This document shows, in pieces, positions 27,753 through 30,118 of a DNA stretch of 40,436 nucleotides (position 1 is the stretch's first letter; every line of letters begins with the position of its first letter). Source of the stretch: Candidatus Omnitrophota bacterium. Its GTDB lineage: Bacteria > Omnitrophota > Gorgyraeia > Gygaellales > JAHJCI01. A program made the position numbers and the translations under genes. The notes beneath the pieces are model-generated. The model worked only from the letters and a program-made list of their open reading frames with translations, did no database searches and had not been told where the DNA came from. The DNA is taken from NCBI GenBank assembly GCA_016783355.1, contig JADHWR010000002.1:1-40436 (forward strand), given 5' to 3'.

Positions 27753-30118
27753 AGCGTTTTTATACATCTGAGTCGGTAGGAATGGGTCATCCGGATAAAC
27801 TTTGCGATCAAATATCCGATGCAGTCTTAGATGACGTCATCAGGCAGGACCCGAATAGCCGGGTAGCTTGCGAGACTTATATTACGATGGGTTTGGTAAT
27901 TGTGGGTGGAGAGATAACCACGCGTAGTTTTACCGATGTGCATAATATTGTGCGCAATTTAATCAAGGAGGTCGGTTATACTCATCCTAAATATGGCTTT
28001 GATTATGAGACCTGTGCAATCGTTAATGCCGTACATAGTCAATCGCCGGATATTGCTCAGGGAGTAAATAGGGGTGGCGCAGGTGATCAGGGATGTTTAA
28101 AGAAGGGAACGTTGGTAAAAACAGATAAAGGATTTTTACCCATTGAGGAGATTAAGAAGGGAGATTTGGTAGTTACTCCCTATGGTTTGAGAAAAGTATT
28201 AGAAGCAAGAAAAACAGGTGTAAAAAATATAGTTGAGCTTATTTTTTCTAATGGGATGCGCTTAGAGTGTACACCTGAACATAGAGTTTTTTGCTACAGC
28301 AAGGATGGAAAAACTTATTGGCAAGAAGCGTCTAAATTAACTTCAAAGGATTTTGTATGTATTTTGAAATCGAGTGAAATTAGCTCCTCGAAATATATAA
28401 CTTCCAGAGTAGAAAAGAAAGAGTTTTTTACTAAATATAATCATAAGATATATGGACAAGAAGAAGTAATCCTCGATGATGAAATCGCCTATATTGCAGG
28501 GTTGCTTATAGGCGATGGTGCCTGTAATAATAAAATGTTAATGGAAATTTCTTTTGGAAGGGATAGAGGATATGCCTTGAAGGTTAAGAAAATGTTAGAT
28601 AGGAAATTTTCTAATCAATGGAGATTAATACAGGCAAAAGATGGGACATTTAATTTAAAGATAGATTCAGTTTTAGTTAGAAGACATTTTGAAAATTTTG
28701 GAGTAGGATATAATAAAGCTCCGGAAAAAGTAACTCCACAAGCTATTTTTATTTCTCCTAAGAATGTAATAAAAGCCTATCTAAGAGGGCTGTTTGATAG
28801 TGACGGAACCGTTGTCCCTAATACAGGGAGGAAGAAGGAGAATATTAGGGTTAGGTTAGGTTCCACTTCATATAAATTATTAGAAGAAACCCAACTTTTA
28901 CTGAATGATTTTAGAATAAAAAGCTCGATTCTTTTCAATGCTCCTAAAGGAATACCTGTAGGTAAAGACAAAAGATACAAATCTAAGCATGATAGTTTTG
29001 CATTGAGTTTAGCAGGATTTGAGAGCTATCAGAATTTTGGTAAACAGATTGGTTTTTCTCATCCTCAAAAAGCAAAAAGGTTACGCAGGTATTTAGAAGC
29101 TATCCAAACTAAGCCTAAAAATTCACCAAGTATATATCTTCTGCCCCATCCTTACAAAGAAGAGATGATAGGAGAAGAGCTAATAAGTAAGAATTTACCA
29201 TTTGGGATTACTACTGTAAAGACAAAAGTTAAAAAGAGCAAAGCAGAGGTTTATGATTTAGAAATATCTAAGAGGAATGTATTTTCTGCAAATGGAGTGT
29301 TTGTCCATAACTCAATGATTGGTTACGCCTGTTCTGAGAGTCCGGAATTTATGCCTTTACCTATTATGCTTTCCCATAAACTGGTAATGCAGATGGCAAA
29401 GGTGAGAAAGGAAGGTATTTTAAGCTATTTGGGCCCTGATGGCAAATCACAGGTTACCGTGGAATATCATAACGGAAAGCCTGTTTGCGTTGATACTGTA
29501 GTTCTTGCCTGTCAGCATACTGATGAGATTCTTAATAGAAGCGGAGATGCTATTACCCAAAGGGCAAGAAATGAAATTATAGAAGCAATTGCCAAGCCTG
29601 TCTTAAAAGGATGGATTGATAAGGATACCAAATATTTCGTTAATCAAACGGGCAAATTCGTAATTGGCGGACCACAGTCAGATACAGGTATGACTGGTAG
29701 AAAGATTATCGTGGATACTTATGGTGGATGTGTGCCTCATGGGGGTGGCTGCTTTTCAGGCAAAGATCCGACAAAGGTTGACCGCTCTGCTGCTTATATG
29801 GCAAGATATGCTGCCAAGAATATTGTTGCTGCGGGTTTGGCAAAAAGATGCTTGATTCAATTAGCCTATGTAATCGGAAAGGCGCAGCCCCTCTCGATAA
29901 TGGTTGATACATCTGGCACCTCAAGTATTTCCGAGGAGAAAATTGTCAATTTAATCAGAAAGAAATTTGACCTTACGCCAAAGGGAATTATTAAAACCCT
30001 GGATTTGCTAAAGCCGATATACAGAAAAACTGCTTGTTTTGGTCATTTTGGGAGACCAGAATTTAGCTGGGAGAAGTTAGATAAGGTAAAGGAATTGCAG
30101 AATGGACTTCGGGGGTAG
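27749..30118 (+). CDS. metK: S-adenosylmethionine synthetase interrupted by an intein (precursor 789 aa; spliced product about 383 aa)
   Basis: The N-extein has [22 protein letters not shown] and ends in GAGDQG. The C-extein is SMIGYACSE...DTYGG...[19 protein letters not shown]. The exteins together match the length and motifs of normal MetK. Confidence 0.93.
28094..29311 (+). mobile_element. Class 1 intein with LAGLIDADG homing-endonuclease domain, inserted in the MetK GAGDQG|S motif
   Basis: 406 aa. Cys1 ([10 protein letters not shown], block A), TPEH (block B, TxxH), LAGLIDADG motifs [10 protein letters not shown] and [11 protein letters not shown], then VYDLEI (block F) and VFVHN (block G), followed by the +1 Ser. 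Frame and boundaries were hand-checked (TGT at 28094, AAC at 29309-29311). Confidence 0.9.

Follow-up and report, generated by a model that had tools for sequence, protein, structure and literature searches.

A 40,436-bp stretch of Candidatus Omnitrophota DNA (contig JADHWR010000002.1; hereafter the window, that is, the whole stretch analysed) contains a gene for the S-adenosylmethionine (SAM) synthetase MetK, whose reading frame is split directly after the conserved GAGDQG motif by an in-frame insert of 406 amino acids (aa). This insert is very probably a canonical class-1 LAGLIDADG intein, a selfish mobile element that would have invaded Omnitrophota metK at precisely this point, its splicing and DNA cleavage being predicted from sequence. 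Direct support is provided by its anatomy and fold, the conservation of its catalytic residues, the restoration of the host protein upon excision, the purifying selection acting on it, its presence and absence at a syntenic site, and its foreign nucleotide composition. The element belongs to a well-known kind, that of the full-length inteins, and its novelty lies in the host and the insertion site.

Host protein and splice junctions

The metK precursor open reading frame (ORF), comprising N-extein, intein and C-extein, occupies positions 27749..30118 of the plus strand (stop codon included), as established from the ORF list and Pfam, and encodes 789 aa; the features of the precursor described below all lie on this strand. 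Pfam profiles place the three SAM synthetase domains at aa 3-100 (S-AdoMet_synt_N, PF00438), 522-637 (S-AdoMet_synt_M, PF02772) and 639-776 (S-AdoMet_synt_C, PF02773), each scoring well above its cut-off, and the signature motifs GHPDK, GAGDQG and GGGCFSGKD (a variant of GGGAFSGKD) are present and align with those of Escherichia coli MetK. On the basis of the three domains and these motifs, the host protein is a MetK of the bacterial/eukaryotic type. Published descriptions of SAM synthetase assign ATP/adenine binding to the hexapeptide GAGDQG and identify GGGAFSGKD as the P-loop that binds the triphosphate (PMC2148060, PMC8779809).

The preliminary description of this locus had proposed that an oversized 789-aa metK ORF carries an insert at residues 116-521, the removal of which restores the MetK motif, and the ORF, the coordinates and both junctions proved to be exactly as proposed. 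The N-extein (precursor aa 1-115, 27749..28093, plus strand) ends in GAGDQG, with Gly as the -1 residue, and aligns to residues 3-121 of the E. coli structure 7ll3, while the 268-aa C-extein (29312..30118 with its stop codon, plus strand) starts with the +1 Ser (29312-29314), continues with MIGYACSE and aligns from Leu122 of E. coli MetK onwards. In translation, the edges of the insert read NRGGAGDQG upstream and SMIGYACSE downstream, and the insert itself runs from CLKKGT to GVFVHN. Its excision in silico yields a product of 383 aa, of which residues 2-379 align to E. coli MetK (7ll3/1fug) with E=4e-142, without any gap at the junction (GAGDQG-SMIGYA against GAGDQG-LMFGYA) and with the motif HGGGxFSGKDPxKVDRS retained. 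The Ser at the splice junction corresponds to Leu in the E. coli enzyme (position 122 of the 7ll3 chain, or Leu121 when the initiator Met is left out). At the DNA level, the fused extein site of the window consists of GGTGGCGCAGGTGATCAGGGA on the N-extein side, joined to TCAATGATTGGTTACGCCTGT on the C-extein side.

Anatomy and predicted fold of the intein

The intein (406 aa, 1,218 bp; precursor aa 116-521) extends over positions 28094..29311 of the plus strand and is supported by Pfam, AlphaFold2 and Foldseek. The N-terminal lobe of its Hint domain (intein aa 1-105, 28094..28408, boundary approximate), all-beta in the AlphaFold2 model, opens with the block A residue Cys1 (28094-28096) and contains block B in the form TPEH (28271..28282), which corresponds to the TxxH pattern with Thr60 and His63. 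It is followed by the LAGLIDADG endonuclease domain together with a linker/DNA-recognition region (intein aa 106-348, 28409..29137, boundaries approximate), modelled as alpha/beta and bearing motif 1, IAGLLIGD141G, with the catalytic Asp141 (28484..28522), and motif 2, YLRGLFDSD237GT, with the catalytic Asp237 (28778..28810), the latter falling within the LAGLIDADG_3 match at aa 225-282. The C-terminal Hint lobe (intein aa 349-406, 29138..29311), modelled as beta, includes blocks F and G (29249-29311), with the sequence VYDLE (Asp388) in block F and His405-Asn406 at the very end. Both expected Pfam families were matched by the insert well above their cut-offs, namely Intein_splicing (PF14890) with 58.3 bits against 35.8, and LAGLIDADG_3 (PF14528) with 52.5 bits against 22.5.

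The AlphaFold2 model of the intein, built from an alignment of 12 sequences, had a mean predicted local distance difference test (pLDDT) score of 89.2, with every segment at 50 or above, and a predicted template modelling (pTM) score of 0.91. When this model was compared with the PDB using Foldseek, the top matches were all endonuclease-containing inteins: 7qsu (TliVMA, E=6e-19), 7qss, 1dq3, 1vde/1ef0/1lws, 7qst and 2cw7. The free-standing LAGLIDADG enzymes I-Tsp061I (2dch) and I-DmoI ranked next and matched the central domain only, with template modelling (TM) scores to the target of 0.68-0.75 and E-values of about 1e-7 to 1e-5; the central domain is predicted to adopt the pseudo-dimeric alpha-beta-beta-alpha-beta-beta-alpha LAGLIDADG fold. 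A sequence search of the PDB with the intein also retrieved the TliVMA intein 7qsu (E=3e-6).

The junction behind GAGDQG is hereafter designated the a-site, and the conservation analysis covered 13 a-site alleles, i.e., that of the window and those of 12 other genomes (L003-L014) described below. All 13 share Cys1, Thr60, His63, Asp141, Asp237, Asp388, His405 and Asn406; at +1, 11 of them have Ser and two have Cys. Three further cysteines of the N-terminal Hint lobe, all non-catalytic, are equally invariant (13/13): Cys59, which immediately precedes Thr60 of block B, Cys67 and Cys89; their role may be structural, or they may constitute a redox or metal site. The splicing blocks recognized in the preliminary description, i.e., Cys1, TxxH, the terminal His-Asn and the +1 Ser, as well as the two LAGLIDADG motifs, were all recovered in the translation. 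At the level of sequence, the insert shows every feature expected of a full-size intein of class 1 that carries a LAGLIDADG homing endonuclease.

Nucleotide composition and the intein-less allele

The intein DNA is poorer in G and C (GC 0.330) than the N-extein (0.449), the C-extein (0.418) and the window as a whole (0.408), and its product contains 12.8% Lys against 7.8% in the exteins, in agreement with the earlier impression that the intein is more A/T- and Lys-rich than its host. At third codon positions (GC3), the intein value of 0.259 lies about six standard deviations below the mean of the 25 other ORFs of the window (0.391±0.021, minimum 0.348). Across the a-site loci, GC is lower in the intein than in the exteins at 13 of 13 and GC3 at 11 of 13, the most extreme GC3 contrast being found in L012 (0.44 in the intein against 0.79 in the exteins).

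The nearest intein-less MetK (protein P0014, locus L083) is 79% identical, and its gene stands in the same NTP_transferase-metK-ahcY-pfk-fba order as in the window. Two direct neighbours anchor this synteny: the NTP-transferase gene upstream (27015..27752, plus strand, identified with Pfam), which overlaps the start of metK by 4 nt, and ahcY downstream (30132..31391, plus strand, Pfam AdoHcyase), encoding S-adenosylhomocysteine hydrolase, the partner of MetK in the methyl cycle. The empty a-site of L083 reads GGAGDQG followed without interruption by GMIGYACS, and its DNA is GGCGGCGCTGGTGACCAGGGC joined to GGGATGATCGGTTATGCCTGT. Window and L083 together represent a classical occupied/empty polymorphism at a syntenic site, as expected for a mobile intein.

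All of the best 120 relatives of the spliced MetK are free of inteins (381-403 aa, identity up to 79%), and where source names were given, these were invariably Candidatus Omnitrophota or Omnitrophica. The position equivalent to +1 is variable in these 120 proteins (46 Phe, 30 Thr, 15 Ile, 11 Met, nine Ser, seven Leu, one Gly and one Cys). Among the closest 45 or so, it is mostly Thr or Ser, and three of them have the exact sequence GAGDQGSMIGY, so that empty sites already equipped with a nucleophile, and hence compatible with splicing, are common in the Omnitrophota clade.

Distribution of the a-site intein

A pattern scan over one genome per GTDB species revealed the a-site intein in 12 other species representatives (L003-L014), where it lies between MetK exteins and shares 52-80% identity with that of the window along its entire length. 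At these loci GAGDQG is followed by the Cys that opens the intein, the intein ends in (V/I/L)(H)N, and the next residue is Ser in ten cases and Cys in two. According to the submitters' labels, the carriers belong to Omnitrophota (L004, L005), Patescibacteria (L014), Aenigmatarchaeota (L007, L013) and Micrarchaeota (L008, L012), with one simply named 'archaeon' (L009); the labels 'Planctomycetales', 'Saccharibacteria' and 'Gammaproteobacteria' given to 'binchicken' bins are probably unreliable. The neighbours of the L014 gene, encoding PNPase, a DksA-type zinc finger protein and a ComM-like protein, fit a bacterium, and the flanking genes of L012 are uninformative, the archaeal assignments used here being those of the submitters.

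In a phmmer search of 1.84 billion cluster representatives at 50% identity, only two full-length members of the family were found, P0134 (65% identical) and P0135 (44%), both of them MetK proteins with the same junction, and the next matches dropped to E-values of about 1e-39 and identities of 26-30%. P0135, an 803-aa MetK with Cys at +1, reads LSLGNG instead of LIGDG in LAGLIDADG motif 1, and this replacement of the catalytic Asp by Asn suggests that the endonuclease has been inactivated in one lineage. A word-indexed search of 5.8 billion proteins yielded nine MetK proteins with a related intein, labelled as Aenigmatarchaeota or Micrarchaeota or left unnamed, and a Heimdallarchaeaceae MetK (P0009) with a more distant one (E=4e-29). 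The a-site family is real and recurrent but rare. In the 12 species representatives, its alleles are annotated simply as 'methionine adenosyltransferase'.

In L013 (= L002, JACPZZ010000010.1, labelled Aenigmatarchaeota), the intein measures 382 aa, a stretch of about 24 aa behind the endonuclease core having been lost. At the same locus (L002:4400-5100), a +1/-1 frameshift is located near codon 17 of the N-extein, with MKKQFFTSESVTEGHP ending at a stop in one frame and the coding sequence continuing in another; either a sequencing error or incipient decay could account for this frameshift, because of which the NCBI gene call begins inside the intein. The proteins P0002-P0006 begin inside the intein, and a split intein or split gene was considered as their source; this was rejected, as the N-extein of L002/L013 lies directly upstream and in frame with the intein, and the other a-site loci carry full N-exteins. 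A phage vector was rejected as well: no close copy was found among IMG/VR viral contigs, where the best matches were 21-34% identical, and the two matches with scanned ORFs (L084, L085) were devoid of MetK domains.

Many metagenome-assembled genomes (MAGs) labelled as DPANN, Asgard or Nitrososphaerales (L007, L008, L012, L013, L164-L186) encode a MetK of the bacterial/eukaryotic type and not the archaeal methionine adenosyltransferase (MAT). The exteins of the intein-bearing alleles in archaeal-labelled MAGs are 49-59% identical to those of Omnitrophota, and whole-gene transfer of metK between the domains is plausible, the taxonomic labels again being the submitters'.

A second intein insertion site in MetK

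Alignment of homologues revealed a second site, here termed the b-site, 148 extein residues downstream of the a-site. There, a LAGLIDADG intein of about 450 aa, starting with Cys and ending in CHN, separates HGGG(A/C)F from SGKD in L004 (5645-end), L009 (4727-6076), L012 (3953-5296) and the Heimdall protein P0009. The site is unoccupied in the window, where the P-loop motif HGGGCFSGKDP (29738..29770, plus strand) is intact and the split point would fall between nt 29755 and 29756. A dedicated scan detected the b-site intein at 25 MetK-flanked loci in 25 species representatives (loci within L165-L188 included), i.e., in at least 25 species in total, labelled as Micrarchaeota, Aenigmatarchaeota, Heimdallarchaeota, Iainarchaeum, a Nitrososphaerales-labelled bin, Omnitrophota (L182) and Patescibacteria/Parcubacteria (L174, L180). 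The b-site is therefore the commoner of the two as an insertion site in MetK. Most b-site carriers have an empty a-site, and both inteins occur together in three genomes (L004, L009, L012).

The inteins of the two sites share the host MetK, a location in a nucleotide-binding signature motif and a full-size LAGLIDADG architecture; they differ in that block B of the b-site intein reads TPNQ and lacks His, and in that an additional helical insert of about 45 aa precedes its block F. They are about 25-29% identical (BLASTP E=2e-31; E=1.3e-29 for P0009 in a phmmer pass), which places the b-site intein among the closest relatives outside the a-site family. Slightly better scores against the window intein (E-values of 1e-39 to 1e-30) were obtained by about 11 multi-intein proteins, the host of which is unidentified. 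Since GAGDQG and the P-loop both bind nucleotide, both MetK inteins are found in the usual intein habitat.

Selection, mobility and history

Ratios of nonsynonymous to synonymous substitution (dN/dS, omega) among the Omnitrophota-type alleles, computed according to Nei and Gojobori, were 0.08-0.17 for the whole intein, 0.08-0.19 for the endonuclease region, 0.06-0.18 for the Hint lobes and 0.06-0.11 for the exteins, dS being saturated in many pairs. Such values argue strongly for purifying selection on intein and exteins, and on the splicing and endonuclease parts alike.

Divergence of the intein and of its host appears discordant in several pairs. Between the window and L004, the intein is 72% identical (dN 0.18) and the exteins 54% (dN 0.37); between the window and L006, the respective identities are 67 and 50%; and between the window and L003, dS amounts to 0.80 in the intein and 1.54 in the exteins, with the reservation that dS is often saturated among pairs. 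In crude neighbor-joining trees based on 245 extein residues, the L004 intein groups with the clade of the window and the L004 extein does not. Taken together, conservation, selection, discordant divergence and low GC favour a history of repeated horizontal acquisition, by homing or recombination, from donors of low GC content. The activity of the endonuclease, its target and the direction of the transfers are inferred.

Several points weigh against an intein that is mobile by way of an active endonuclease. Owing to the saturation of dS, several omega values could not be computed, and the constraint on the endonuclease region could partly reflect the needs of folding and splicing and not nuclease activity. 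In pairs of a bacterium and an archaeon, inteins (about 55% identity) and exteins (49-59%) have diverged to a similar degree, and the spread across domains could be due to transfer of whole metK genes and not to homing. Finally, the LGNG found in P0135 in place of LGDG demonstrates that endonuclease decay does occur in the family.

Proposed mechanism and alternative explanations

If the insert is the class-1 intein proposed here, metK would be translated as a 789-aa precursor, presumably inactive because 406 residues part the ATP-binding motif from the strand that follows it. Splicing by the Hint domain would begin with an N-S acyl shift at Cys1, continue with trans-esterification to the Ser at +1 and cyclisation of Asn406, and end with an O-N shift, ligating the exteins into a 383-aa MetK (GAGDQG-SMIGYA) and freeing a 406-aa, 46-kDa endonuclease intein. 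A pairing of Cys1 with Ser at +1 is used by well-studied inteins, e.g., Ssp DnaB. The freed endonuclease would cut intein-less metK at the fused sequence coding for GAGDQG followed by xM(I/F)GYA, and repair of the cut allele would copy the intein into it (homing, gene conversion), which would explain the patchy distribution of the a-site intein across lineages.

The most serious competitor, to which we nevertheless give clearly less than even chances, is an intein that still splices but whose endonuclease is inactive, so that it would be inherited vertically as a passenger, retained only because it is seldom lost precisely and an imprecise loss would destroy an essential enzyme. The concordance of intein and extein trees within the clade formed by the window, L003 and L005 is in favour of this view, as are the Asp-to-Asn change of P0135 and the shortened copy of L013. 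The a-site alleles as a group speak otherwise: none of the 13, that of the window included, has lost either catalytic Asp, omega of the endonuclease region does not exceed that of the Hint domain, and divergence appears discordant for L004 and L006. To this are added the low, un-ameliorated GC3 of the window intein and the empty sites in all of the best 120 relatives, and together these observations favour a recent gain over ancient passive carriage. A different kind of role, improbable on present grounds, would be that of a conditional switch, in which redox state or a metal, acting on the invariant non-catalytic cysteines of the Hint domain, would decide whether the precursor is spliced and hence whether active SAM synthetase is produced. 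Redox- and zinc-sensitive inteins are known, Cys59, Cys67 and Cys89 are retained in every allele even though catalysis needs only Cys1, in two alleles Cys1 is matched by a Cys at +1, and the position of the intein at the ATP-binding motif implies that the precursor should be inactive. This support is purely correlative, however, as the conserved cysteines may be structural, and most close relatives do well without any intein. If the switch existed, ultra-small, host-dependent cells of Omnitrophota, Patescibacteria and DPANN would gain post-translational control over their supply of methyl donor, and the MetK inteins would be more than parasites, passing between bacteria and archaea that live together in groundwater or sediment.

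Two further explanations would deny the element any function, or even its existence. A dead insertion that does not splice and leaves metK as a pseudogene or a gene for an inactive protein is conceivable insofar as a single genome window was analysed and a second MAT gene may lie elsewhere; it is very improbable in view of the unbroken frame of 789 codons, the intact splicing residues and MetK signature motifs, the strong purifying selection on intein and exteins, and the location of metK in a conserved operon-like context with ahcY. A chimeric assembly, in which an unrelated intein-bearing fragment was joined into metK, might be suspected from the metagenomic origin of the sequence and from the difference in GC between the insert and its flanks. 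Yet the identical 789-aa protein was found on two contigs in all, one of which (ENA ERZ24794679, NODE_4552; 36,797 bp) differs in length from the 40,436-bp window, and the insert is joined to its host with codon precision, in such a way that excision restores the MetK motif. Moreover, 12 further genomes at species level, originating from different studies, have an identical in-frame arrangement and identical junction residues, and so do the two additional cluster representatives P0134 and P0135. With a family recurrent across genomes, an assembly chimera is excluded for practical purposes. The canonical, presumably mobile class-1 LAGLIDADG intein thus remains the explanation that we consider very probable.

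Relationship to known inteins

The best structural matches of the window intein are VMA-type inteins and their relatives, i.e., TliVMA/PhoVMA (7qsu, 7qss, 7qst), PI-PfuI (1dq3), PI-SceI (1vde/1lws) and PI-TkoII/PI-PkoII (2cw7), with Foldseek E-values of 6e-19 to 4e-14 and TM scores of about 0.5-0.7. They possess the same Hint domain split by a two-motif LAGLIDADG endonuclease and share the chemistry of blocks A, B, F and G, but are only 12-17% identical to it and are inserted at different sites, in V-ATPase, ribonucleotide reductase (RNR) or DNA polymerase, whereas the host in the window is the metabolic enzyme MetK. Among the nearest relatives outside MetK are the inteins of PhoH-like ATPases, RecD2-type helicases, CDC48 and RNR (L015-L023, L085, P0010, P0011), which align over much or all of the window intein with 23-28% identity and contain the same pair of PF14890 and PF14528. 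Their hosts are classical ones, with ATPase, replication or nucleotide-metabolism functions, and no insertion-site context is shared with the window intein. Bacterial intein-like (BIL) and other Hint domains have the Hint fold in common with it, and the Pfam families Hint_2 and Vint match its N-terminus below threshold; BIL domains, however, have no endonuclease and lack the canonical pairing of His-Asn with a +1 nucleophile in a conserved host motif. Mini-inteins are devoid of an endonuclease and split inteins are assembled from two genes, whereas the window intein is contiguous, full-size and equipped with all canonical blocks.

MetK had been considered in the preliminary description as a rare and perhaps uncatalogued host, which is broadly borne out. 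A search of the literature on inteins in combination with the names MetK and MAT or with the host phyla found no paper describing a MetK intein, only unrelated uses of intein tags, and MetK is not mentioned in the main text of the intein survey of Novikova 2016 (PMC4760082). InBase is not known to list a MetK allele. The empty sites in the best 120 homologues and the two members among 1.84 billion cluster representatives are also in favour of rarity. On the other hand, the allele is already present, though unremarked, in 12 public GTDB species representatives, and MetK has a second, commoner site.

Genomic context

Apart from the intein, the window is an ordinary segment of a diderm-bacterial chromosome. 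It encodes a XerC-like recombinase, a cluster for lipopolysaccharide (LPS) core, Kdo and Lpt functions, trigger factor, the EIIA and EI components of the phosphotransferase system (PTS), a GH57 enzyme, a cupin-type phosphoglucose isomerase (PGI), the NTP-transferase, metK, ahcY, pfk, fba, ilvDBNC and leuA. No second intein was detected in the window by a Pfam scan of 29 further ORFs and the gene annotations of four more, and Rfam and tRNA scans of the window returned nothing relevant.

Of the 37 ORFs of at least 100 aa in the list, the 33 that represent sizeable genes are all located on the plus strand over 40 kb, with short gaps or overlaps between them, and the four minus-strand ORFs are nested inside plus-strand genes; the cumulative GC skew climbs monotonically across 26-32 kb. 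Several of the encoded proteins have an unusual domain composition. These are a 618-aa LpxL-like lipid A acyltransferase fused to an ELM1-like domain (3365-5221), a 731-aa fusion of a GT4 glycosyltransferase and a GT9 heptosyltransferase (5580-7775), a 695-aa protein in which two stretches match the GT9 profile (10728-12815), and a 290-aa trigger-factor homologue with Trigger_N and Trigger_C but no peptidyl-prolyl isomerase (PPIase) domain detected between them (19570-20442). The GH57 alpha-amylase/4-alpha-glucanotransferase (22217-24256) and the cupin-type PGI (PF06560, 26236-27018) adjoin PTS enzyme I in this LPS-making bacterium; GH57 enzymes and cupin-type PGI are best known from thermophilic archaea.

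Implications

Inteins reside mainly in proteins of replication, repair and nucleotide metabolism, COG categories L and F accounting for 83% of bacterial and 75% of archaeal intein hosts (PMC4760082), and a central enzyme of one-carbon metabolism is an unusual host. The two independent sites in MetK, each located at a nucleotide-binding signature motif, extend the rule that inteins reside in conserved ligand-binding sites. In practical terms, intein-bearing metK genes are mishandled by gene callers, several NCBI entries being truncated at the N-terminus, and the inteins inflate the length of MetK in annotation pipelines. The element also enlarges the toolkits of protein and genome engineering by a new Cys1/Ser+1 intein and, presumptively, by a new LAGLIDADG specificity. 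For the biology of the lineages concerned, the restricted distribution of the MetK inteins provides a concrete means of tracing gene flow between small-celled, uncultured lineages that possess a bacterial-type metK and are labelled as Omnitrophota, Patescibacteria, DPANN and Heimdall.

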